From NCBI GenBank assembly GCA_021835845.1, contig JAKBJU010000002.1, forward strand, positions 118,130 through 182,129: a stretch of 64,000 nt of DNA, written 5' to 3'. Below are positions 1 through 16,395 of the stretch, one piece after another. Position 1 is the stretch's first letter. Every line of letters begins with the position of its first letter. The position numbers and the translations under genes are program-made. This DNA comes from Pseudomonadota bacterium (GTDB lineage: Bacteria; Pseudomonadota; Gammaproteobacteria; Burkholderiales; JABEVD01). The notes beneath the pieces were generated by a model that saw only the letters and a list, made by a program, of their open reading frames with translations, had not been told where the DNA came from and did no database searches.

Positions 1-442
1 GCTGGAAATCGGGGTGGGCCTCGATCAGCTCGCCTTTCTTGTCGAGCGGAAGGGTTCTTCTGTAGTCGGTAAGGGGGTGGATCACCACGGTGGTGTCCTG
101 CCTTGCCTCGACGATTTCGTCGAGATAGCAGATTGCCCCCATCCGTGCGGCGATGGTGAGCGGGCCATCCTGCCACCGGGTGCCGCTTGCATCCAGGAGA
201 AAGCGGCCGACCAGGTCGGAAGCCGTCATGTCTTCGTTGCAGGCCACCGTGACCAGGGGCTTTTCAAGCTTCCACGCCATATGCTCGACGAAGCGGGACT
301 TTCCGCAGCCCGTCGGGCCTTTGAGCATGACCGGCATTCTGGATGCATAGGCTGCCTCGAAAAGAACGACTTCCTTACCCTGCGGCTGGTAGAAGGGCTC
401 CCTGCTTATCCTGTACTGATCGACATCGATCGTTTCATTCAT
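1..442 (-). CDS. cbbQ: CbbQ-type AAA+ (MoxR-class) RuBisCO activase subunit, second paralogue; only the 5' part is in the window
   Basis: This gene is absent from the ORF track because it has no stop codon inside the window. A reverse-strand ATG at 442..440 is preceded by GGAGGA. My hand translation is [95 protein letters not shown]... It is collinear and mostly identical with the complete CbbQ at 5734..6540, including the Walker A motif GPTGCGK. It lies directly downstream of cbbM. Confidence 0.85.
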
Positions 443-462
443 CGGTTTTCCTCCAGAAATAA

Positions 463-488
463 CAAAGCCCCTGCTCGCAGGGGCTTTG
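463..488 (-). terminator. Intercistronic hairpin between cbbM and cbbQ, likely a leaky terminator or mRNA stabiliser
   Basis: A perfect 11-bp stem CAAAGCCCCTG/CAGGGGCTTTG has a 4-nt loop. On the transcribed minus strand it is followed by TTGTTATTTCT and then the GGAGGA RBS of cbbQ. Confidence 0.45.
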
Positions 489-507
489 CGTTGCGCCGGA
501 CGGCGGA

Positions 508-1887
508 TTATTTATGAACGCCCAGCTTCTGGCGCCAGCCGGGGTAGAGCTTGTCCGCATCTTTCGGAAAAGATTCGAATGCACGGGCGAATTCCTTGTG
601 CTCTTTCGCGAACTCGATCGGATCTGCGCCCGTCTTCCAGCACTCGTAAGACTGGCGCAGGGAAATCGCGCCGGCTGCCGGACTGTCGATATGGCCGTAG
701 GAGCCGCCGCCTGCCGTATTGATCACGTTGCCGTGGCCCAGGTTCTCGAAGAAGCCCGGCAGGCGCAGCGCGTTCATGCCGCCAGAGATGATCGGGGTGG
801 TCGGCTTCATGCCGTACCACTTCTGGAAGTAGACCGGACCCTGGCACTCGTCGCGCTCGATCATGTAGGCGATGTTCTTGTCATCCGCCTCGCCTTCCAT
901 CTTGCCGTAGCCCATGGTGCCGACGTGAATGCCTGAAGCACCCTGCAGGCGGCTCATTTTGGCCAGCACGAAAGCGGTATAGCCGCGCTTGGCGGAAGGC
1001 GAAGTCACTGCGCCGTGGCCCGCGCGATGGTAGTGCAGGTACTGGCCGGGATACTGGCGACGTGCGGTGGTCACCATGCCGGGGCCGCCGACATAGCCAT
1101 CGACCAGGAAGGCGAGCTTGTCGGCATCCGGACCGAACACTTCGAGAGCATAGTCAGCGCGCGCGCACATTTCGTAGTGATCATCCGCGGTGATGTTCAT
1201 CGAGAACAGCTTGGCTTCGCCGGTTTCATCCTGGGCGCGCTTGAGGGAGTCATAGACCAGCGGCAGGACCTTCTTGAGCGGGCAGAAAACCTGATTGCCC
1301 TGGGGTTCGTCGTTCTTGATGAAGTCGCCGCCCAGCCAGAACTGGTAAGCCGCCTTGGCGAAGGGCTCGGGACGCAAGCCGAGCTTGGGCTTGATGATGG
1401 TTCCGGCGATGTAGCCGCCATCCTTGACCGGGCGACCCAGGATGCGCCACAGGTTGGAGATGTCGGTGGCCGGGCCGTCGAACATCTGGATGGCGCGCTC
1501 GGGCACATAGAAGTCGATCATCTTGGCGTGCTCGATGTCGCCCATCCCCTGATTGTTGCCGATGGCGAGCGTCAGGAAGGAAACCAGCATGAAGCGACCA
1601 TCGGTTACGTTGCGGTCGAAAAGTTCCAAAGGGTAGGCAATGCGCATGTCCTCGGTGGCTTCGTCGATGTGATAGACCAGCGCGTCCACGCCTTTGGTGA
1701 AATCATCGGTGGTGGAGACTTCCACATTGGTGCCGGTGGAGGATTCGGCGGCAAAGTGCGCGGCAGCCTCCAGATAACCGTAGCCGGCCTTGGGTTTCAT
1801 CTTGTAGGCCACCAGAATGTGCTTGCCCCCCTTGATGAGGCTTTCTTCGCTGAGGTCCAGATTGGCATAACGATTGGACTGGTCCAT
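508..1887 (-). CDS. cbbM: Ribulose-1,5-bisphosphate carboxylase/oxygenase, form II
   Basis: The 459-aa ORF has an ATG start. It carries the form II active-site motif [14 protein letters not shown]. No small-subunit gene follows, and the length and sequence are typical of CbbM. Confidence 0.97.
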
Positions 1888-2001: not shown

Positions 2002-2919
2002 ATGCCTAGACTGACCCTACGCCAACTGGATATTCTTGAAGCCGTTGCCCGCTGCGGGAGCTTTTCCCGTGCGAGCGAAGAACTGCATCTGACGCAGCCA
2101 GCTGTTTCCATGCAAATCAAGCAGCTGGAAGAGTCCCTGGGCTTGCCCTTGTTCGAGCAGATTGGAAAGCGCATTCACCTCACCGAGGCCGGGCGCGAAG
2201 TGCTGGAAACAAGCCGCGCAGTGAGCCGTGAACTGGCAAATCTGGAACATGCTCTGGGGGATTTGCGGGGTTTGAAGGGGGGGGCTCTGACGGTGTCGGT
2301 CGTGAGTTCCGCCAGCTACCTTGGGGCAAGGCTGATCGCCGCATTCCGACAGACCCACCCGGATGTACGCGTGAGCCTGAATGCGGTCAATCGCGAAACA
2401 TTGTTGCGTCATCTGGCCGAAAACAGCATCGACCTTGCGCTGATGGGTCTGCCGCCGGACGGTCACGATCTCCAAGCACAGCCCTTCCTGGACAATCCGC
2501 TGGTGGTCATCGCCTCGCCATCCCATCCGTTGGCGGAAATGCCCGACATCTCCTTGCAGCGCCTGGCAGAGGAGCCCTTTGTCGGTCGCGAGCAGGGTTC
2601 GGGAACCCGCAGCGCCGTAGAAAAGTTTTTCAACGAGAACGGCCTGGCGCTGAAGGTTGCCATGGAAATGAACAAGAACGAGGCCATCAAGCAGGCAGTG
2701 GAGGCCGGACTGGGCGTAGGCGTGGTGTCACTTCACGGAGAGCTCGCAAAAAGGAATTTGTGCCTTCTGGACGTGCAGGGCTTCCCGTTGTTGCGACAGT
2801 GGTATCTGGTTCAGCGGCAGGGAAAGCGCCCCAGTGCCGCCGCTCAGGCTTTTGCCCAGTTCGTATTAAGCGAGGCGACCCGAATTGCCCATGTGGAGGT
2901 GGCCGGCCAAAAGTCCTAG
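2002..2919 (+). CDS. cbbR: LysR-family transcriptional regulator, CbbR-type (paired with cbbM)
   Basis: The 305-aa ORF has an N-terminal LysR HTH (FSRASEELHLTQPAVSMQIKQLEESLGLPLFEQ). It is divergent from cbbM. It is paralogous to the ORF at 8641..9531. Confidence 0.85.
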   Translation: MPRLTLRQLDILEAVARCGSFSRASEELHLTQPAVSMQIKQLEESLGLPLFEQIGKRIHLTEAGREVLETSRAVSRELANLEHALGDLRGLKGGALTVSVVSSASYLGARLIAAFRQTHPDVRVSLNAVNRETLLRHLAENSIDLALMGLPPDGHDLQAQPFLDNPLVVIASPSHPLAEMPDISLQRLAEEPFVGREQGSGTRSAVEKFFNENGLALKVAMEMNKNEAIKQAVEAGLGVGVVSLHGELAKRNLCLLDVQGFPLLRQWYLVQRQGKRPSAAAQAFAQFVLSEATRIAHVEVAGQKS

Positions 2920-3218
2920 TCTTCGTCGCCCAGTTCCGGATCCCAGCCTTTTTTTCTGGCTTCGAGAGTGGCTTTTTCATAAAGCGCGATGTGGCGTTCA
3001 CGCAGGTCGGGGGGCAGGCGGCTGGGCAAGTTGCCGTATTTGTCCCATTCCTTCTCCACCCTGTCCATCAGGTTCTGCATGCGTCCCATATCCCAGCCGG
3101 CGCAATCCTCGGTGTCGGGGATCATTCCGAACAGCCAGCCATCGAGCACGATGCGCCCCAGCTGGGTGATGCCGTGCTTGTCCTGATAAAAGCCGACGTA
3201 GTTGTTTTCCATGCTCAT
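2916..3218 (-). CDS. Small conserved-looking hypothetical protein downstream of cbbO, possibly CbbN-like
   Basis: The 100-aa ORF is on the same strand as cbbO and lies 95 nt downstream of it. It has an ATG start. The product looks soluble and acidic, with four Trp residues, three of them in a recurring W-D context. Its position and size match my recollection of cbbN in the Nitrosomonas europaea cbbLSQON operon, but I could not verify homology. Confidence 0.6.
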   Translation of the reverse strand: MSMENNYVGFYQDKHGITQLGRIVLDGWLFGMIPDTEDCAGWDMGRMQNLMDRVEKEWDKYGNLPSRLPPDLRERHIALYEKATLEARKKGWDPELGDED

Positions 3219-3313
3219 CTTGTCAAACCTGCATAAAGAAGCGGGGACTTTTGGCTCCGGTCGCAGCTGCGCTGCTTAATCCGGCAGAGCCGGCAACCTC
3301 GAAAGCTTGCGCC

Positions 3314-5671
3314 TCATCTCGTCAGTCCCGCGTACAACAATGGGAGCTTTTCAGGCAACCTTTCCACCTGGTCGACCACCATATAGTTGCGGGCACCGAA
3401 AATTCGCGACACATACTGGTCCGCCCGGGGGTCGAGGCTCATGCAATAGGTGATGATACCCGATCGGCCCACATCTTCCACAGCTTTTTTCGCATCATAG
3501 CGCAAATACTGCGGATCCCGAACGTCGACGTCAGCCGGCTCTCCGTCGGTGATCACCAGAAGCAGCTTCTTGGACGATCGCTGCTGCCTGAGATGCCATC
3601 CCGCATGGCGGATGGCCGCACCCATGCGGGTGGAGAGCTGGCCGGTCATGCCCGCAAGCCTGCCCTTGGGCGCTTCGTCCCAGGTCTGGTCGAAGTCCTT
3701 GAATCGGTAGTAGTCGACGTTGTTTCGTCCGTCGGAGCAGAAGCCGTGGATGGCGAAGGGGTCTCCCACCTTTGAAATGGCGTCCGACAGCAACACGCAG
3801 GCCTGGCGGGTCAAATCGAGCACGCTGAATTCCTGCCCCGAAACCTTTTCGTTGGTGGACTCGGACAGATCCAACAGCACCATGATGGAGATGTCGCGCA
3901 CCTTGCGCACCGAACGCATCATGATCCTGGGGTCGGGCTGCATGCCCATGCGCAGATCAATGGCGCTCGCGATGGCTGCATTGATGTCGATTTCGTCGCC
4001 GTCCTCGAGTTTCCTGATGCGCTGCACGCCCTGGGGCTGCATGGTGTCGAGGAGGAATTTCATGCGATGGATTTCCCGCTTGTATTGAGCGGCAATGCCG
4101 TCGATGACTGCGGCGTCCCCGCGCCTCGCGCGCTTTTCCAGAACGGTCGCCCAGGAGGGCCGTTCCAGCTGGATCTGGTAGTCCCATTCGGAGTAATGAT
4201 AGGGTTCCGAAACAGGCTCCTTGCCCTCCAGCTCGTTGAAAGACTGGCCGCCGCTCTCGTCCCCGATATTCTCGTAGGGATAGAGTTCGGTGCTCAGCAC
4301 CCAGATTTCCTCGGCATCGTCCCCCGCCGTTTCGACGTCGATCTCGTTCGCCATCTCCATCACGTTCACGTACTTGCGCACCTGTTTGATGGTGTCGTAG
4401 CCGGCGGAAGCGGCCTTTTCGAAATCGAATTCCTCGAATTCCCAGAAATAGCGGTTGTCGTCGCGGTAGGGCGCCGTCAGCACATCGGTGCGCGGATTGT
4501 ACGGAATCTGCCTGCGGCTCAGAGCATGCGCGAGCTGCACGCCGATTTCCCACGAAATCTGATTGCTGCCCAAGCGATCCTGCGCCGAGGCGAACAGGGT
4601 ACGGCCTTCGGCGATCCATGGATCGTCATCCCGATAATTCTCGTCCAGCAGCGCACGCGCAAGGCGGTTCAGATAGTCGCCCACGCTTGCGTTCATGGCC
4701 TGCGTGGCAAGATGCAGCCTGCTCCAGAGCTGCTTCAGGCCCGGGAAGCGCCGGATCGACAGCGCTTCCACACGCGCATCCTCGATCACCGAAATCAACG
4801 CCATCTGCATCGGATTCAGGGCTTCTGCGGACAGCGGCTGTTTGGTTTCAACCACATGCGCAGCGCAGTGCGCGGCAGTCGCGCGATAAAGTTCGAGGCC
4901 GGAAACCGGCTCCTGTCCCTCGATCGCGAAATCGTCGTAGGCATCGGGAAGATGCAGCAAATAATCCTCGATGTAAGGCTTGTAGCCCTCTCGCGACTCG
5001 AAATCCCCGGAAGTCGGACGCATGAAGAAGTCGCGCGCCCACAGCGCCCTCAAATACATGTTGATGCGCCGCTGCACATCGACCAGCAAGGTGCCCTTGC
5101 GCTCTTTCTGCAGCATGGCCAGCGACTCCTTGGAATCGAGGCCGAAGTAGCGAATCTGCTCTTCGTAGTTGGTGCGGTGCGCATGCGCTCCCCACAATGC
5201 CCAGCGCCTGAGCCCGCCCAGGGTTAGATGCTGGAACAGCGTCTCCAGATTGTCGAGCATGGGGCGAACCCCGCGCGGCGCCTGTGCGATCAGCGTATTG
5301 ATGAACTGCAGATAGTTGATGAAGAGCTGCGCGTCGCCCAGCCTTCTGGCGGCAGCTGGCGCTGTGGCAAGCAGGAGTTCAATGACCGCTCCCGAAGTCT
5401 TGGACGCGAGAATCAAGGATGCCGTGGCAAGTTCCCCGACCACATCTTCGCCGACTTCCTTGGCAACCCGGGGAGCCTCGTTTATCCAGGTTTCGACCAG
5501 GGAGTCTCCTCGCCCCAGGCTGCGTATCGCAGACACCCCCTTGAGGTAATTGTCCAGCCCGCGCGGGCTGAACACCTTGGTGGCATCATGCCAGCTGACA
5601 TTGAGCGCATCGCGGCTGTGCGGCGAAAGATCCTCCAGCAGCTCGGCGTAGTCTTCGAGTTTGATTGACAT
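3314..5671 (-). CDS. cbbO: CbbO, the von Willebrand factor A-domain adaptor subunit of the CbbQO RuBisCO activase
   Basis: The 785-aa ORF sits immediately downstream of cbbQ. It has a C-terminal VWA domain with a MIDAS-like motif (VLLDLSESTN). Both size and position are typical of CbbO/NorD-like proteins. Confidence 0.9.
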   Translation of the reverse strand: MSIKLEDYAELLEDLSPHSRDALNVSWHDATKVFSPRGLDNYLKGVSAIRSLGRGDSLVETWINEAPRVAKEVGEDVVGELATASLILASKTSGAVIELLLATAPAAARRLGDAQLFINYLQFINTLIAQAPRGVRPMLDNLETLFQHLTLGGLRRWALWGAHAHRTNYEEQIRYFGLDSKESLAMLQKERKGTLLVDVQRRINMYLRALWARDFFMRPTSGDFESREGYKPYIEDYLLHLPDAYDDFAIEGQEPVSGLELYRATAAHCAAHVVETKQPLSAEALNPMQMALISVIEDARVEALSIRRFPGLKQLWSRLHLATQAMNASVGDYLNRLARALLDENYRDDDPWIAEGRTLFASAQDRLGSNQISWEIGVQLAHALSRRQIPYNPRTDVLTAPYRDDNRYFWEFEEFDFEKAASAGYDTIKQVRKYVNVMEMANEIDVETAGDDAEEIWVLSTELYPYENIGDESGGQSFNELEGKEPVSEPYHYSEWDYQIQLERPSWATVLEKRARRGDAAVIDGIAAQYKREIHRMKFLLDTMQPQGVQRIRKLEDGDEIDINAAIASAIDLRMGMQPDPRIMMRSVRKVRDISIMVLLDLSESTNEKVSGQEFSVLDLTRQACVLLSDAISKVGDPFAIHGFCSDGRNNVDYYRFKDFDQTWDEAPKGRLAGMTGQLSTRMGAAIRHAGWHLRQQRSSKKLLLVITDGEPADVDVRDPQYLRYDAKKAVEDVGRSGIITYCMSLDPRADQYVSRIFGARNYMVVDQVERLPEKLPLLYAGLTR

Positions 5672-5733: not shown

Positions 5734-6540
5734 TTATGAGAAGAAGGTGGTCACTGCGGCGTCGAGGGCATCGCGCATGTCCGGGTCGTCGGTGATCGGC
5801 CTGACCAGGGCGACGCGGCAGGCGTTCTTCGGCTCCACCCCCCTGGCAATCAGGCTGCCCGCATACACCAGCATCCGCGTCGAGACGCCTTCGTCCAGAC
5901 CATGCCCCTTCAGGTTCCTGGAGCGCTCCGCAATCGACACCAGCTTCTCCGCAACCTCGCCCTGAACCCCCGATTCGTGCGCCACGATCTCCGATTCGAC
6001 CGCATGCTCCGGATAATTGAAATCGAGCGCTCCGAAGCGCTGCTTGGTCGACTGCTTCAGATCCTTCATCAGGCTCTGATAGCCCGGATTGTACGAAATC
6101 ACCAGCTGAAAATCCGGATGCGCATGCACCAGCTCGCCCTTCTTCTCCAAAGGCAGAACCCGCCTGTTGTCGGTCAGGGGATGGATCACCACCGTGGTGT
6201 CCTGCCTCGCTTCCACCACCTCGTCCAGATAGCAGATCGCCCCATATCTCGCCGCAATCGCAAGCGGCCCGTCCTGCCAGCGCGTGCCCGAAGCATCCAG
6301 CAGAAAACGCCCCACCAGGTCGGATGCGGTCATGTCCTCGTTGCAGGCCACCGTGATCAGCGGTTTCCCGAGCTTCCAGGCCATGTATTCCACGAAGCGC
6401 GTCTTGCCGCATCCCGTCGGCCCCTTCAGCATCATCGGCATCCTCACCGAATACGCCGCTTCGTATAGCGCCACTTCGTCAGATACCGCGCGATAATAGG
6501 GTTCCTTCTCTATTCTGTACTGGCTGATGATGTCGCTCAT
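5734..6540 (-). CDS. cbbQ: CbbQ AAA+ RuBisCO activase subunit (form IA-associated)
   Basis: The track ORF is 5734..6597. I place the start at the ATG at 6540 ([16 protein letters not shown]...) by collinearity with the paralogue at 1..442 and because AGGAG lies upstream. The Walker A motif is GPTGCGKT. Confidence 0.92.
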
Positions 6541-6568
6541 GGCTGCTCCTAGAAAATGATCTGCGGAA

Positions 6569-6624
6569 GGGTCTGACCGCTTGACTCGGCGAATCAAGCG
6601 GTCAGACCCCGCCTTGCGGCGGGG
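6569..6624 (-). other. Double hairpin downstream of cbbS
   Basis: A perfect 16-bp stem GGGTCTGACCGCTTGA/TCAAGCGGTCAGACCC (6569..6584 and 6594..6609) has a 9-nt loop. An adjacent, partly overlapping 7-bp stem is CCCCGCC/GGCGGGG (6607..6613 and 6618..6624). There is no clear U-tract, and the cbbQ RBS AGGAG follows. Confidence 0.55.
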
Positions 6625-6630
6625 AGAGCC

Positions 6631-6987
6631 TTACACCGTCTTGCCGCGGTAAATCACCATCGCCGTGCCCTGGCTTTGCGCAAAGTTGTCGTAGCCGACC
6701 AGACGGACGTGGTTGTTTGGATTGGCCTTGTGGCAGGCTGCCGCCTCGCCCAGAATCCTGTCCACATCGGTCTCGCCGAACATCGGCAGCTTCCACATGT
6801 ACCAGTAGTTGTCCATCAGGTGCTCGGGCTCGGTATGCTCAACCGCCGGATTCCAGCCCTTTTTCACGATGTACTCGACCTGTTTCCTGATCTTGTCGGC
6901 GTCCAGGGCCGGCAGATAGGAAAAGGTTTCGAACTTGCGGCTGGCAGGATCGCTCAACCGGCTTTTGTAATCCATCATTTCAGACAT
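6631..6987 (-). CDS. cbbS: RuBisCO form I small subunit
   Basis: The 118-aa ORF lies directly downstream of cbbL. It contains a typical small-subunit sequence ([13 protein letters not shown]...[11 protein letters not shown]). Confidence 0.95.
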
Positions 6988-7038: not shown

Positions 7039-8460
7039 TCACTTGTGCGCCACGTCCAGCTTGTCGACGGTGTCGAACTCGAACTTGATCTCTTTCCACG
7101 TTTCCATGGCGATCTTGAGTTCGGGGCTGTGCTTGGCGGCTTCAGTCAGAACTGCCTTGCCTTCCTTCTCGACCTGGACGCCGCGGTTGCGCGCTTCCAC
7201 GCAGGCTTCCAGTGCGACGCGGTTGGCGGCAGCGCCAGCGGCATTGCCCCAGGGATGGCCCAGCGTGCCGCCGCCGAACTGCAGGCAGGCGTCGTCGCCG
7301 AAGATCGCGACCAGCGCGGGCATGTGCCAGACGTGGATGCCGCCGGATGCGACCGGGAATACTCCGGGCATGGAGCCCCAGTCCTGGTCGAAGAAAATGC
7401 CGCGCGAACGGTCTTCCTTGATGAAGGAATCGCGCATCAGGTCGATCCATCCCAGGGTCGAGGCACGGTCGCCTTCCAGCTTGCCGACGACGGTGCCGGA
7501 ATGCAGGTGATCGCCGCCGGAAAGGCGCAGGATCTTGGCCAGCACGCGGAAATGGATGCCATGGTGCGGGTTGCGGTCGATCACGGCGTGCATTGCGCGG
7601 TGGATATGCAGCAGAATGCCGTTGTCGCGACACCAGTTGGCCAGGCCCGTGTTGGCGCAGAAGCCGCCCGTGATGTAGTCGTGCATGATGATGGGGGCGC
7701 CGATTTCCTTGGCATATTCTGCACGCTTGTACATTTCTTCCGGGGTCGGGGCAGTCACGTTGAGGTAGTGGCCCTTGCGCTCACCGGTTTCGCGTTCGGC
7801 CTTGTGGACCGCTTCCATCACGAAGTCGAAGCGCTGCCTCCAGCGCATGAAAGGCTGGCTGTTGACGTTTTCGTCGTCCTTGGTCAGATCCAGACCGCCG
7901 CGCAGGCATTCATAAACGGCCCGGCCGTAGTTCTTGGCGGAAAGACCCAGTTTGGGCTTGATGGTGCAGCCGAGCAGCGCACGGCCGTACTTGTTGAGCA
8001 TGTCGCGCTCGACCTGGATGCCATGGGGCGGACCGCCGCAGGTCTTGACATAGGCGATGGGGAAGCGCACGTCTTCCAGACGCAGGGCGCGGATTGCCTT
8101 GAAACCGAACACGTTGCCCACCAGCGAGGTGAACACGTTGACCACGGATCCCTCTTCGAAAAGATCGATGGGGTAGGCCACGAATGCATAGAAGCAGGTG
8201 TCGTCGCCGGGAACGTCTTCGATGCGATAGGCGCGGCCCTTGTAGTAGTCCAGATCCGTCAAAAGATCAGTCCAGACCGTGGTCCAGGTTCCGGTCGAGG
8301 ACTCGGCTGCAACGGCAGCTGCCGCCTCTTCGCGGTCCACGCCGGGCTGGGGGGTGATTTTGAAGCACGCCAGGATATCGGTATCCAGCGGCGTGTACTC
8401 GGGCATCCAGTAGGTTTGCCGGTATTCCTTCACGCCGGCATTGTAGGTTTTGACAGCCAT
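7039..8460 (-). CDS. cbbL: RuBisCO form I large subunit (form IA-like, non-carboxysomal cbbLSQO type)
   Basis: The 473-aa ORF carries hallmark large-subunit motifs ([43 protein letters not shown]). It is followed by cbbS-cbbQ-cbbO. There are no carboxysome genes in the window. Confidence 0.97.
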
Positions 8461-8640
8461 AGCAGCCTCCTCAAGAGAATGAAAATATCCCGAAACCGGG
8501 ATGTTGCGAGTCGTTCACTTTCGACTTGAAAACACTATACCGGCCACTTATCATAAGAAACAGTCAGATGTTTTGATTGTTATCATCATCAAAAGCTTAT
8601 GGTATATTGTTGTCAGTCGGAACAACAAGTATAGGTCGCC
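8461..8640. promoter_or_regulatory. Divergent cbbL / cbbR control region
   Basis: This 180-bp spacer contains the palindrome CTTATCATAAG at 8547..8557, plus further TTATCA and CTTATG copies. Such sites are typical of a LysR/CbbR operator region. This is an inference with no binding data behind it. Confidence 0.4.
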
Positions 8641-9531
8641 ATGCTCCATTTGACTTTCCGCCAGCTCAGCGTATTCGAATCGGTCGCCAGAAATCTGAGT
8701 TTTTCGCGTGCCGCCGAGGAAATGCATCTGACGCAGCCTGCCGTATCCATGCAGATCAAGCAGCTGGAAGAAAATATCGGCCTGCCGCTGTTCGAGCAAT
8801 TGGGGAAGAAGATCTTCCTGACCGAAGCAGGCAAAGAGCTCTACCATTACAGCAGGATCATCGCGCAGCAACTCCTTGAGGCCGAATCCGTCCTGTCCGA
8901 ACTGAAGGGCCTGGAGCGGGGAAAGCTGAACATTTCCGTGGTCAGCACGGCAAATTATTTCGCCCCTCAGCTTCTTGCACGATTCTGCACCGACCATCCC
9001 CAGATCAAGGTCAGCCTCAATGTGGGCAACCGCGAATCGGTATTGAAGCAGCTGCACGACAACGAGATCGATCTCGCCATTCTCGGCACCCCTCCCGAAG
9101 GGATCGACATCGAGGCCTACCCCTTCATGGAAAACCGCCTTGTCATCATCGCCGCGAGCGGCAACCCCCTTGCCGACAAGCCGGCCATTCCGGCGTCCAG
9201 ACTCCAGAATGAAATCTTCATCATGCGGGAGCAGGGTTCCGGAACACGCCTGGCTGCTGAAAAATACTTCTCTTCCCACAGCGTTCAGGTCAAGACGGGG
9301 ATGGAAATGAGCACTACCGAGGCGGTAAAGCAGGCCGTTCAGGCTGGAATGGGATTGGGCATTCTTTCTCTGGACACGGTGCTGCTCGAAGTCGAGACTG
9401 GCCGCCTGAAAGTCCTCGACGTGGAAGGATTCCCCATCATACGCCATTGGTATTTGGTGCACAGGCAGAACAAGCGGCTATCGAGCGTGGCGGAAGCCTT
9501 CAAGTCCTTTCTGCTCAGGCAGGCCCAATAA
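8641..9531 (+). CDS. cbbR: LysR-family transcriptional regulator, CbbR-type (paired with cbbLSQO)
   Basis: The 296-aa ORF has an ATG start and is divergent from cbbL. Its HTH (FSRAAEEMHLTQPAVSMQIKQLEENIGLPLFEQ) is nearly identical to that of the other CbbR. Confidence 0.85.
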   Translation: MLHLTFRQLSVFESVARNLSFSRAAEEMHLTQPAVSMQIKQLEENIGLPLFEQLGKKIFLTEAGKELYHYSRIIAQQLLEAESVLSELKGLERGKLNISVVSTANYFAPQLLARFCTDHPQIKVSLNVGNRESVLKQLHDNEIDLAILGTPPEGIDIEAYPFMENRLVIIAASGNPLADKPAIPASRLQNEIFIMREQGSGTRLAAEKYFSSHSVQVKTGMEMSTTEAVKQAVQAGMGLGILSLDTVLLEVETGRLKVLDVEGFPIIRHWYLVHRQNKRLSSVAEAFKSFLLRQAQ

Positions 9532-9575: not shown

Positions 9576-10640
9576 TTACTTGATCACCGCCTTCAGCTCT
9601 CCCTTGGCATAGCGCTGCGCCATCTGGTCCAGGGACAGCGGCTTGATCTTCGCCGCCTGGCCTGCAGAGCCGAATGCCTCGTAACGCGCCTTGCAAATTT
9701 CCTTCATCGCCTTGGTCGCAACGGTGAGGAATTTGCGGGGATCGAAGTTCTTTTTATCTTCCGCAAGGAATTTCCGGACTGCGCCGGTGGAAGCCATGCG
9801 CAGATCGGTATCGATGTTGACCTTGCGCACGCCGTGCTTGATCCCCTCGACGATTTCCTCGACCGGAACGCCGTAGGTTTCTCCCATGTCGCCGCCATAC
9901 TGGTTGATGATCTTCAGCCATTCCTGAGGAACGGACGAGGAGCCGTGCATCACGAGATGCGTGTTGGGAATGCGCGCATGGATTTCCTTGATGCGGTTGA
10001 TCGCCAGAATTTCCCCGGTCGGCGGACGGGTGAACTTGTATGCGCCGTGGGAAGTCCCGATCGCAATCGCAAGCGCATCCACGCCGGTTTGCTTGACGAA
10101 CGCCGCCGCTTCTTCCGGATCGGTCAAAAGCTGATCGTGCGAAAGCTTGCCCTCCGCGCCGTGGCCGTCTTCCTTCTCGCCCTGACCCGTTTCGAGCGAA
10201 CCCAGGCAGCCAAGCTCACCTTCCACGGAAACGCCCACTGCGTGGGACATCTCCACGACCCGGCGGGTCACGTCGACGTTGTATTCGAAGGAGGAGGGGG
10301 TCTTGGCGTCTTCCATGAGGGAGCCGTCCATCATCACGCTGGAAAATCCGGAGCGGATGGCCTGGATGCAGATCGCCGGCGATGCGCCGTGATCCTGGTG
10401 CATGACGATGGGAATATGCGGATAGGCTTCGACAGCCGCCTCGATCAGGTGGCGCAGGAATGCTTCCCCTGCATATTTTCTCGCCCCGGCGGAGCCTTGC
10501 ATGATCACCGGGCTGTTGCACTCGTCCGCAGCCTGCATGATTGCCTGGACCTGCTCCAGGTTGTTAACGTTGAACGCAGGGAGGCCGTAGCCGTTTTCCG
10601 CTGCATGATCCAACAACTGCCTCAATGATACGAGAGCCAT
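9576..10640 (-). CDS. fba: Fructose-1,6-bisphosphate aldolase, class II (Calvin-cycle subtype)
   Basis: The 354-aa ORF has an ATG start. It shows class II aldolase motifs (HQDHG, HGSSSVP) and is the last gene of the tkt-gap-pgk-pyk-fba block. Confidence 0.93.
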
Positions 10641-10681
10641 AATTTTCTCCTTCGGATAAATTCAGAATAAAAAAACACCAG

Positions 10682-12115
10682 CTATTTTCTGTTGTCGCCC
10701 ACCTTGACGATCTTCATCGTATTGGTTCCTCCAGGCTGTCCTATCGGCTCGCCGATGGTCAGCGCTATGAAGTCGCCGTCTTCGATGATCTTGTTCTGCA
10801 GCAAGAGATCTTCCACCTTTTCCAGAAGCTTGTCCCTGTTGTAACCCTTGAATTCGCCGAGCATGGGATAGACGCCGCGATAAAGCGTCATTTTCCTGCG
10901 GGTTTCTTCGATGCTGGTCAGGGCATAGATCGGAACCCCGCTGTTGATGCGAGACATCCACAGCGGGGTAGATCCCGACTCCGTCAGGGAAGCGATGGCT
11001 TTCACCTTGAGGTGAAAGGCAGTGAATATCGTTGCCATGGCAATCGACTGATCTATCCGCGTGAAATCCCGCCGGTTCAGGAATCCCCGTTCGAGAGCGG
11101 CCTCGACCGACTTTTCGGCTTCGATGCAAATGCGCCCCATCGCTTCTATCGTCTCGACAGGATATTTTCCGGCAGCAGTTTCGGCTGACAGCATGACCGC
11201 ATCCGTTCCGTCGAGTACGGCATTTGCCACGTCGGAAACTTCCGCCCTGGTCGGGATCGGATTCTCGATCATCGATTCCATCATCTGCGTTGCCGTGATG
11301 GTCAGCTTGTTCTTGGCCCTTGCGAGCTTGATCATTTTCTTCTGCAACGCGGGAACGGCCGCATCTCCCACTTCCACGCCGAGATCTCCGCGCGCCACCA
11401 TGATGCCGTCGCTCGCATCGAGAATTTCATCGAGACTGGGAATCGCCTCGGCCCTTTCAATCTTCGCAATCAGCAATCCGTGTCCGCCAGCCTTGCGCAG
11501 CAAATTCCGGGCAAGATTTATGTCTTCTCCGGTGCGCGGGAAGGAGACGGCCAGATAATCCGCCTTGAGTTCGGCGGCCGTGACAATGTCTTCCATGTCC
11601 TTGGCCGTGAGGGCAGGGGCGCTCAATCCGCCGCCCAGCCGGTTGATTCCCTTGTTGTTCGACAAAATGCCGCCGTGCTTGACGGTGCAATATATTCTCG
11701 GCCCGTCGATCGAAACCACATTGAGAACGATCCTGCCATCGTCGAGCAGCAGCATGTCGCCGGCAGAAACGTCTTTCGGCAGATCCTTGTAGTCGAGTCC
11801 GACCTGGTCCTGGTTGCCGAACTCGCAATTGGCGTCGAGCACGAACGGAGCGCCCTTTTCGAGCTGGATTTTTCCCTGCTCGAATTTCCCTATCCTGATT
11901 TTTGGACCCTGCAGGTCTGCCATCACCCCGACCGACCGACCTTGTTTGTCCGCTATTTTCCTCACCAGCTCGGCGCGGTGGATGTGATCCTGGGCCGTGC
12001 CGTGCGAGAAATTCATCCTGACCACATCCACGCCGGCGGTAATCATTTTCTCCAGCGTCGCTGCGTCCGTTGAGGCCGGGCCCAGCGTTGCTACAATCTT
12101 AGTTCTTCGTTGCAT
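10682..12115 (-). CDS. pyk: Pyruvate kinase
   Basis: The 477-aa ORF begins MQRRTKIVATLGPAS and contains MVARGDLGVE. Confidence 0.93.
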   Translation of the reverse strand: MQRRTKIVATLGPASTDAATLEKMITAGVDVVRMNFSHGTAQDHIHRAELVRKIADKQGRSVGVMADLQGPKIRIGKFEQGKIQLEKGAPFVLDANCEFGNQDQVGLDYKDLPKDVSAGDMLLLDDGRIVLNVVSIDGPRIYCTVKHGGILSNNKGINRLGGGLSAPALTAKDMEDIVTAAELKADYLAVSFPRTGEDINLARNLLRKAGGHGLLIAKIERAEAIPSLDEILDASDGIMVARGDLGVEVGDAAVPALQKKMIKLARAKNKLTITATQMMESMIENPIPTRAEVSDVANAVLDGTDAVMLSAETAAGKYPVETIEAMGRICIEAEKSVEAALERGFLNRRDFTRIDQSIAMATIFTAFHLKVKAIASLTESGSTPLWMSRINSGVPIYALTSIEETRRKMTLYRGVYPMLGEFKGYNRDKLLEKVEDLLLQNKIIEDGDFIALTIGEPIGQPGGTNTMKIVKVGDNRK

Positions 12116-12167
12116 ATTTGCGGGTCATTCAAAGTGAAGACCGGCCCAATGGGCCGGCCTGTTTCGT

Positions 12168-13349
12168 TCATTTTGCGCGCTGTTCCAGAATATCGACTGC
12201 GGGCAGCTTCTTTCCTTCGAGAAACTCGAGAAAGGCGCCGCCTGCCGTGGAAATGTACGACACCTTGTCGTAAATGTCGTACTTCTGCACTGCAGCGATG
12301 GTGTCGCCGCCGCCCGCCAGCGTATAGGCTTTCGTTTCGGCAATGGCCTTGGCAATGGCTTTGGTCCCTTCGCCGAACTGGTCAAACTCGAATACGCCTA
12401 CCGGGCCGTTCCATACCACAGTGCCCGCCTTCATGATGATGTCGACGAGTTCCTGCGCGGACTTCGGACCAATGTCGAATATCATGTCGTCGTCGGTGAC
12501 TTCCGAGGCCTCTTTCGTCACAGCGGGTTCGTTCGAATCGAATTTCTTGCCCACCACCACATCGACTGCGACGGGAATGGTCGCGCCGCGCGCCGTCATC
12601 TTGCCCATCAGCGCCTGGGCTGTCGGAACCAGATCGTCTTCGCAGAGCGATTTGCCGACGTTCTTGCCGGAAGCTTTCAGGAACGTATTGGCTATCCCGC
12701 CGCCCACGACGAGCTGATCGACTTTTTCGGAAAGGGCTTCGAGCACAGTAAGCTTGGTCGAGACCTTCGATCCGCCGACAATGGCAACCATGGGGCGCAC
12801 CGGATTCGCCAGCGCCTTTTGCAACGCATCCAGTTCTTCCGTCAGCAAGATGCCGGCGCATGCTGCGGGCGCATATTTCGCCACACCATGGGTAGAGGCT
12901 TCCGCACGGTGCGCCGTTCCGAAAGCGTCCATGACGAAGACATCGCAAAGCGCAGCATATTTCTTCGCCGTGTCGTCCAGGTTTTTCTTTTCGCCGGTGT
13001 TGAAGCGACAGTTTTCCAGCACGACCAGTTCGCCATCGGCCACCTTGAAACCGCCGTCAACCCAGTTGCGGATCAGCCGCACGGATTTTCCAAGCCGCCT
13101 GGAAATATCGTCGGCAACCGGCTTGAGCGAGTTCTCCTCGGAGAATTCGCCTTCCGTCGGGCGGCCCAGGTGGGACGTGACCATCACTTTCGCGCCCTGC
13201 TTCAGGCAATGGTTGATGGTGGCCATGGATGCCGCGATTCGGGCATCCGAAGTCACCTTGCCGTCCTTGACGGGGACGTTCAGGTCCGCGCGTATCAGCA
13301 CGCGCTTTCCTGCCAGATCCAGGTCGGTCATTCGAATGAAGTTGCCCAT
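12168..13349 (-). CDS. pgk: Phosphoglycerate kinase
   Basis: The 393-aa ORF contains typical PGK sequence ([21 protein letters not shown]). Confidence 0.95.
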
Positions 13350-13351
13350 GT

Positions 13352-16395
<3,044 letters not shown>

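Follow-up and report, generated by a model that had tools for sequence, protein, structure and literature searches.

The closest described counterpart of the gene considered here is Slit_0989, which Emerson et al. (2013, PMC3770913) described in Sideroxydans lithotrophicus ES-1 as a 'small (100aa) hypothetical protein' within the five-gene cluster Slit_0985-0989. Neither function nor expression was reported for Slit_0989 (PMC3770913), and Slit_0989 is not listed in the supplement to the Sideroxydans transcriptome paper. Our subject is ORF100, an open reading frame (ORF) of 100 codons at 2916..3218 on the reverse strand of a 64,000-nucleotide stretch of a Pseudomonadota bacterium (GenBank assembly GCA_021835845.1, contig JAKBJU010000002.1, positions 118,130 to 182,129), referred to below as the window. 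Like Slit_0989, ORF100 specifies 100 amino acids (aa) and comes fifth after cbbL, cbbS, cbbQ and cbbO of a form IAq RuBisCO cluster, and the Gallionellaceae, the lineage of Slit_0989, are among the sources of ORF100 homologues; the likeness of the two is one of size, position and lineage. The ORF100 family has already been noticed, and its function is uncharacterised.

A second counterpart may be cbbN. Wei et al. are said to have described in 2004 a cbbLSQON operon in Nitrosomonas europaea with cbbN as its fifth gene, which we take to be NE1917; NE1918 and NE1919 are cbbO and cbbQ. A literature search found no paper mentioning cbbN together with RuBisCO. Compared by description only, cbbN resembles ORF100 in operon position and is about the same size. 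Homologues of ORF100 with 100 aa occur in N. marina, Nitrosomonas sp. wSCUT-2 and other Nitrosomonas, which makes identity with N. europaea cbbN plausible. Unlike cbbN as so described, however, the homologues in the Nitrosomonas genomes inspected lie 7.8 kb downstream of cbbO or beside an ATPase operon.

Our preferred reading, to which we give a probability of about one half, is that ORF100 serves the form IAq RuBisCO module as a dispensable accessory and acts by protein-protein contact. This reading draws on its membership of the operon, on translational coupling in close relatives and on retention across rearrangements, and equally on restriction to Calvin-Benson-Bassham (CBB) autotroph lineages and on a folded core with invariant aromatic residues that carries an exposed acidic tail.

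Conservation and coding capacity

ORF100 is a genuine, strongly conserved gene. A first-pass annotation of the window had given its coordinates, ATG start and translation exactly, and had correctly placed it on the strand of cbbO behind a spacer of 95 nucleotides (nt; 3219..3313). A single-sequence search returned 582 homologous clusters at 90% identity, made up of proteins of ~97-100 aa that share 70-90% identity with ORF100 and are unnamed or 'hypothetical', and profiles built from distant members raised the number of 90%-identity clusters to 1009 and then to 4336. A profile search of 1.84 billion representatives gave 148 clusters at 50% identity, and the family is therefore compact. The window protein is 70-98% identical over its full length to hundreds of betaproteobacterial proteins and 43-61% identical, again over the full length, to gammaproteobacterial and Nitrosomonas-type homologues. 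It has the features by which members of the family are recognised, ~97-105 aa alignable from end to end with the conserved positions present. No second copy of ORF100 was found within the 64-kb window.

Purifying selection on the frame, which the first-pass annotation had made a test of its proposal, is evident. The ratio of nonsynonymous to synonymous substitution (dN/dS) has a pairwise median of 0.22 among 88 orthologous coding sequences and falls to 0.03 against the nearest relative (dN 0.008, dS 0.27). The GC content at codon positions 1, 2 and 3 is 0.60, 0.36 and 0.76. The presence of two overlapping ORFs of similar length on the opposite strand, at 2760..3236 (+) and 2885..3169 (+), would fit a chance open frame in GC-rich DNA that is never translated. 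Such a frame would not, however, have full-length homologues of conserved length in hundreds to thousands, nor the dN/dS values just given, nor a third-position GC content so far above that of the second position, nor a confident AlphaFold2 structure prediction. The idea that ORF100 is untranslated is next to impossible, and the conservation pattern rules out a spurious ORF.

Linkage to the RuBisCO cluster

Scanning one genome per GTDB species gave 273 loci, the best 80 of which were retained. With the loci of distant homologues added, 92 loci were analysed (four later look-ups stand outside the counts), and linkage was counted in the 72 loci whose upstream flank measured 3 kb or more. The stop codon of cbbO lies at most 400 nt upstream on the same strand in 41 of these 72 loci (~57%), at a median distance of ~50 nt and, in three loci, of -4, -4 and -1 nt. 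In six of the 72, cbbO is found 1-8 kb upstream, and in four a RuBisCO gene is present elsewhere in the locus. The window has the order cbbL, cbbS, cbbQ, cbbO, ORF100, all on the reverse strand, and this position as fifth gene of a cbbLSQO cluster, directly after cbbO, is the commonest arrangement. Homologues thus adjoin cbbO in other genomes, which was another of the tests set by the first-pass annotation. At every linked locus whose flank includes cbbL, cbbS and cbbQ, the gene after cbbS is cbbQ, and the clusters are therefore of the non-carboxysomal form IAq type. The window cbbL is assigned to the same type because cbbQ comes next after cbbS.

The position of the gene within the cluster is not fixed. 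A JGI contig (locus L085) has the arrangement cbbL-cbbS-ORF-cbbQ-cbbO. The homologue of the Solemya velum symbiont (L081) lies upstream of cbbL, and that of a Gallionellaceae contig (L098) is placed between cbbO and the gene for class II fructose-bisphosphate aldolase, all co-directional. Linkage kept through rearrangement is a classic signature of functional coupling. That it survives here points to a functional tie to the RuBisCO cluster as a whole and not to cbbO specifically. ORF100 is linked to the RuBisCO cluster, not only to the activase, and the linkage is not obligatory.

The sources of the homologues are in keeping with such a tie. Those that are named are Thiobacillus, Gallionellaceae, Sideroxydans-type bacteria, Nitrosomonas, Sulfurimicrobium, Parasulfuritortus, Hydrogenophilus, the Solemya symbiont and Piscirickettsiaceae, all of them CBB autotroph lineages or metagenome-assembled genomes of such groups. 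As far as these named sources show, the family is limited to beta- and gammaproteobacterial chemolithoautotrophs, and its usual setting is next to the non-carboxysomal RuBisCO and activase genes of oxidisers of sulfur, iron and ammonia.

The junction between cbbO and ORF100

In the two closest relatives, L001 and L002 (ORF 98% and 90% identical), the stop codon of cbbO and the start codon of the ORF overlap as ATGA, an arrangement that, judged from the sequence, would couple translation of the small gene to that of cbbO. The 95-nt spacer of the window is atypical when set against this overlap. Positions 2616-2654 of L001 match the window twice, at 3313-3351, which is the true end of cbbO, and at 3214-3252, immediately before ORF100. 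From this double match the spacer can be resolved into ~60 nt of unmatched DNA and a relic of the cbbO 3' end, and the TGA of the relic overlaps the ATG of ORF100 as ATGA. The spacer of the window is a local insertion, and the relic preserves the ancestral upstream context of ORF100, the one suited to translational coupling.

The history of the relic has a feature of its own. The last ~39 nt of cbbO are doubled in the window, and the relic hardly differs from the cbbO end of L001. Over 11 codons the functional cbbO end departs from the relic at eight synonymous third positions, an odd pattern if the two arose by simple duplication.

Scans for promoters and terminators and RNA folding around both ends of ORF100 stayed at chance level (z -0.4 to +1.2), and the cbbO-ORF100 spacer showed nothing promoter-like or terminator-like and no structure of unusual stability.

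A recurrent partner and the unlinked homologues

A second uncharacterised family, of ~128-150 aa, is a recurrent neighbour of ORF100. Its gene, here called the partner gene, is present within the flank examined in 44 of the 92 loci and immediately adjacent to ORF100 in 27. The adjacent gene is convergent with ORF100 in 21 loci (betaproteobacterial where named) and co-directional in six, namely the gammaproteobacterial L081-L084 together with L070 and L073. It also accompanies ORF100 at loci without a nearby RuBisCO gene (L083/L084, L021, L039, L053). The partner family has no match in Pfam, NCBIfam or the PDB and none of note in PADLOC or PHROGs; profile-profile comparison of ORF100 with the partner family, and with CbbO, detected no relationship. 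There is no partner gene anywhere in the 64-kb window. The recurrent pairing is the strongest new lead to come from the comparison.

The same pairing also gives the strongest backing to a role that extends beyond RuBisCO, and several further observations weigh with it against an accessory of the RuBisCO module. No RuBisCO gene lies within the flank in 21 of the 72 loci (~29%), and in some gammaproteobacterial loci none was seen near the homologue. Many Thiobacillus have the unlinked order psiE-ORF-rsmB-like-acyl-CoA ligase-fadL-mscS, with a methyltransferase gene as the rsmB-like neighbour. In Nitrosomonas sp. the ORF follows a Na+/H+ exchanger gene and is itself followed by a convergent gene and Nramp, ~7.8 kb downstream of cbbO, and in N. 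marina the homologue sits before an N-type ATPase operon. The form IAq operon of A. ferrooxidans consists of cbbL2S2Q2O2 followed by yfeA, with no such ORF, and the CbbQO complexes of A. ferrooxidans activate RuBisCO in vitro on their own, so ORF100 cannot be a core activase subunit. The first-pass annotation had called the small protein consistently linked to the activase. This was too strong, given adjacency in only ~57% of loci, the loci lacking any RuBisCO gene and the shifts in position, but it was right in that the gene is most often found after cbbO.

These contexts raise the possibility that ORF100 and its partner serve a RuBisCO-independent cytoplasmic process, such as ion, metal or phosphate homeostasis, with the position after cbbO merely inherited as synteny. 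The persistence of the pair at loci without RuBisCO would fit this, as would the Thiobacillus-type contexts, which carry PsiE, an AI-2E transporter, an ion channel and MscS, and the other unlinked contexts with their Na+/H+ exchanger-TrkA_N, Nramp and N-type ATPase operon, and PsiE in Sulfurimicrobium. The invariant polar residues include Asp13, Asp26 and Cys39, with His76 nearly so, and Cys39, Asp26 and His76 could possibly form a metal site. Inherited synteny alone is, however, insufficient to account for recurrence in form IAq clusters at differing positions and in distant lineages, and the ATGA overlap points to co-expression with the cbbO activase. The non-RuBisCO neighbours also vary by lineage and share no single theme, and no metal-binding family or fold was matched. 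We regard a homeostatic role as possible but doubtful.

Protein sequence and predicted fold

The view of ORF100 as a small, soluble, conserved protein with no characterised function is supported. The four Trp residues and the acidic tail noted at first pass are both present in the window protein, but the recurring Trp-Asp motif does not hold up. In a 38-sequence alignment W42, W58 and W92 are invariant whereas the Asp that follows varies, the next residue being D/N/S/E/T after W42 and D/N/S after W92. Residues invariant in the beta- and gammaproteobacterial members are Y7, G9, D13, G16, T18, G21, D26, F30, C39, W42, L50, W58, S66, L68, A83, A87, G91 and W92; W28, Y61, R73, R75, H76 and E95 are nearly invariant in the family. 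ORF100 has a single Cys.

The protein is acidic, with a median isoelectric point of 4.8 and a net charge of about -7; a mean of 4.7 of the last eight residues are acidic (88 orthologues). The window protein ends in GWDPELGDED. After the invariant Gly-Trp the tail of the family is always carboxylate-rich, with the consensus GW-D/N-PELG-D/E-D/E-D/E, and it is retained in the unlinked homologues too.

An AlphaFold2 model based on the 38-sequence alignment has a mean predicted local distance difference test score (pLDDT) of 86.6 and a predicted template modelling score (pTM) of 0.77. In the model an extended N-terminal segment precedes helices at residues 19-30, 44-59 and 70-89, and residues 98-100 are disordered. 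Searches of Pfam, NCBIfam, PADLOC and PHROGs gave no match to ORF100, with none in Pfam at E<=1 over 38 members. The best Foldseek hit against the PDB had E=2.9 and a template modelling (TM) score of 0.29, and there was none below E=1.6 against BFVD. Sequence-profile matches in the PDB are weak helix-hairpins only, to repeat chains named H12 and m4D2. The hit with E=2.5e-5, 8fjg_A, was rejected as compositional, being made up of two weak helix-hairpin stretches (E 0.29 and 2.5) aligned to a repeat protein. We are confident that the family has a predicted three-helix fold without a known match.

Two classes of small protein were considered and rejected. RbcX, Raf1 and acRAF are, like ORF100, small or helical and encoded in or near RuBisCO operons; a chaperone of this type is contradicted by the lack of a Pfam match and by the poor Foldseek scores against the PDB. 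A toxin-antitoxin, defence or phage protein likewise found no counterpart in PADLOC or PHROGs, nor below E=1.6 in BFVD.

A candidate mechanism

The analysis shows a real, conserved and operon-linked gene whose product has a confidently predicted fold and a conserved tail; any physical partner and any effect on RuBisCO are inferred. As an accessory of the form IAq module, ORF100 would normally be the last product of the cbbL-cbbS-cbbQ-cbbO operon, translationally coupled to cbbO in the nearest relatives. It would work by binding rather than by catalysis. The helical core would offer a surface for docking, with seven aromatic residues that are invariant or nearly so, and the conserved disordered C-terminal tail would supply carboxylates to engage the partner.

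The most specific candidate for that partner is the Mg-bound metal ion-dependent adhesion site, or MIDAS, in CbbO's VWA domain. RuBisCO activation requires the CbbO MIDAS and an acidic residue on the RuBisCO surface (Tsai et al. 2015, PMC4660213), the acidic MIDAS ligand being either Asp82 (form I RbcL) or Glu75 (form II) (PMC4660213). CbbO of the window has an intact MIDAS start, DLSES at residue 601. ORF100 resembles the RuBisCO ligand in having conserved, exposed carboxylates, and its gene adjoins cbbO; the comparison is pure analogy. Binding of the tail at the MIDAS would tune or gate engagement of the activase. Argued from neighbourhood and chemistry only, this particular contact is an unlikely, if specific, proposal. 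Alternatively, ORF100 may bind RuBisCO itself, for assembly or stabilisation.

A broader version would make ORF100, possibly together with the partner protein, an unrecognised regulator or co-factor of form IAq RuBisCO and CbbQO with a new fold. As a decoy, for example, it might fill the CbbO MIDAS with its acidic tail and thereby gate the activase; or it might act as an adaptor, for targeting CbbQO or for keeping RuBisCO stable in particular CO2/O2 regimes. We put this forward as speculation to which we attach little weight.

The adjacent regulators and the comparison with CP12

ORF100 and the neighbouring LysR-type gene converge and share the stop tetranucleotide CTAG at 2916..2919, as the first-pass annotation had noted. 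That annotation named the convergent gene cbbR. It is indeed a CbbR-like LysR gene, but it belongs with cbbM, and the regulator divergent from cbbL is the second one, at 8641..9531. In L019, L027, L045, L055, L069 and L021 a further gene lies between ORF100 and the cbbM-associated LysR, convergent with the former and co-directional with the latter; this intervening gene is a member of the partner family. It is absent in the clade of the window (the window, L001-L004, L010, L026 and L036), where the LysR and ORF100 stops are -4 to +34 nt apart, and its loss would explain why the two stops abut. The CTAG overlap looks, on this comparison of gene orders, like a clade-specific scar of gene loss. 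Transcriptional interference between ORF100 and the LysR gene would be speculation, as the absence of a terminator-like structure proves nothing.

The presence of these regulators bears on another explanation, that ORF100 regulates the cbb regulon, either as a modulator of CbbR or as a CP12-like switch whose acidic tail would sequester enzymes of the Calvin cycle. CP12 is the redox-switched regulator of phosphoribulokinase and glyceraldehyde-3-phosphate dehydrogenase in cyanobacteria and plants; it has a conserved Trp-Asp element and an acidic C-terminus, and its function depends on Cys pairs. Like CP12 (PF02672), ORF100 is small and acidic, belongs to Calvin-cycle organisms and has conserved Trp and an acidic C-terminus. 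In the window two CbbR-like regulators stand on either side of it and the tkt-gap-pgk-pyk-fba cluster is nearby, and in several lineages the partner gene comes immediately downstream of the cbbM-associated LysR gene and shares its strand. However, CP12 has two Cys pairs and is disordered, whereas ORF100 has one Cys and is predicted to be well folded. Over the 38 members there is no Pfam match at E<=1 to CP12 or to any DNA-binding or regulatory family, and nothing was found that links ORF100 to CbbR. CP12 itself is rejected on the missing PF02672 match, the single Cys and the predicted folding, and a regulatory role of either kind is improbable.

Gene content of the window and of related loci

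The features of the window, and the partner genes located in other loci, are collected in Table 1.

Table 1. Features of the 64-kb window and partner genes of other loci
Sequence	Feature	Position	Strand	Remarks
Window	cbbM, form II RuBisCO	508..1887	-	Pfam
Window	LysR, CbbR-like	2002..2919	+	divergent from cbbM, convergent with ORF100
Window	ORF100	2916..3218	-	100 codons + TAG, ATG start; no Pfam/NCBIfam match; Slit_0989-like family, possibly cbbN
Window	relic of cbbO 3' end	3214..3252	-	would encode KSPLLYAGLTR*; match to L001 2616-2654
Window	spacer DNA, ~60 nt	3253..3312	-	without counterpart in closest relatives
Window	cbbO, 785 aa	3314..5671	-	Pfam CbbO, C-terminal VWA domain
Window	cbbQ, MoxR-type AAA+	5734..6597	-	Pfam AAA_5 + CbbQ_C; listed TTG start probably upstream of true start
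Window	cbbS, RuBisCO small subunit	6631..6987	-	Pfam
Window	cbbL, form I RuBisCO large subunit	7039..8460	-	Pfam
Window	LysR no. 2, CbbR-like	8641..9531	+	divergent from cbbL
L081	partner gene	8325-8768	+	
L083	partner gene	8346-8795	+	
L085	partner gene	11708-12091	+	
L089	partner gene	8300-8716	-	
L090	partner gene	8312-8713	-	

Beyond the second LysR gene, genes for class II fructose-bisphosphate aldolase, pyruvate kinase, phosphoglycerate kinase, glyceraldehyde-3-phosphate dehydrogenase and transketolase form a single block (9576..16395, reverse strand). This fba-pyk-pgk-gap-tkt block adjoins cbbR-cbbLSQO, in the same order as in L085, and it makes the left quarter of the window a Calvin-cycle supercluster. 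In L001, cbbM is followed by a cbbQ and a cbbO with 69% and 35% identity, respectively, to the form I copies; by comparison with L001, a second cbbQ is expected at 1..517 on the reverse strand of the window, running off its left end downstream of cbbM. Within the form I cbbO, positions 4500..5000 have 63-82% nucleotide identity to L001 against ~92-97% on both sides, and this dip is either a hypervariable middle portion of CbbO or a small recombination patch.

The neighbourhoods of distant homologues have recurrent contents of their own. The N-type ATPase operon of N. marina (L092 8421-15160), with genes for the beta and epsilon subunits, ATPase_gene1, AtpR and the a, c, b, alpha and gamma subunits, begins immediately behind the ORF100 homologue, and a similar ATPase operon follows cbbM directly in L085 (13971-16312). 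Three Nitrosomonas loci (L090 6110-10154, L093 and L096) share a conserved block ~8 kb downstream of cbbO that consists of the genes for an uncharacterised 632-aa protein and Na+/H+ exchanger-TrkA_N, the ORF100 homologue with the convergent partner, and the genes for Nramp and an ABC transporter; between cbbO and this block, a PemK toxin pair and dihydroxyacetone kinase are inserted. The gene for the phosphate-starvation-inducible protein PsiE adjoins the homologue upstream in Thiobacillus (L043 7576-8300) and downstream in Sulfurimicrobium (L097 9001-10092), in the latter with polyphosphate kinase and CHAD/CYTH genes nearby.

Implications

Should ORF100 prove unrelated to RuBisCO, it would be just another conserved hypothetical protein. 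Many bacteria that oxidise sulfur, iron or ammonia fix CO2 mainly with the module of form IAq RuBisCO and CbbQO, which is also a candidate for engineering. CbbQ and CbbO alone have sufficed to reconstitute its activase and, to our knowledge, no third component has been recognised. Conservation, purifying selection, retention in the cluster and, in some genomes, coupling to cbbO make ORF100 an obvious candidate for a further component, be it a regulator, an adaptor or an assembly aid. As the protein is short, soluble and confidently predicted, tests of its binding and activity would be straightforward.

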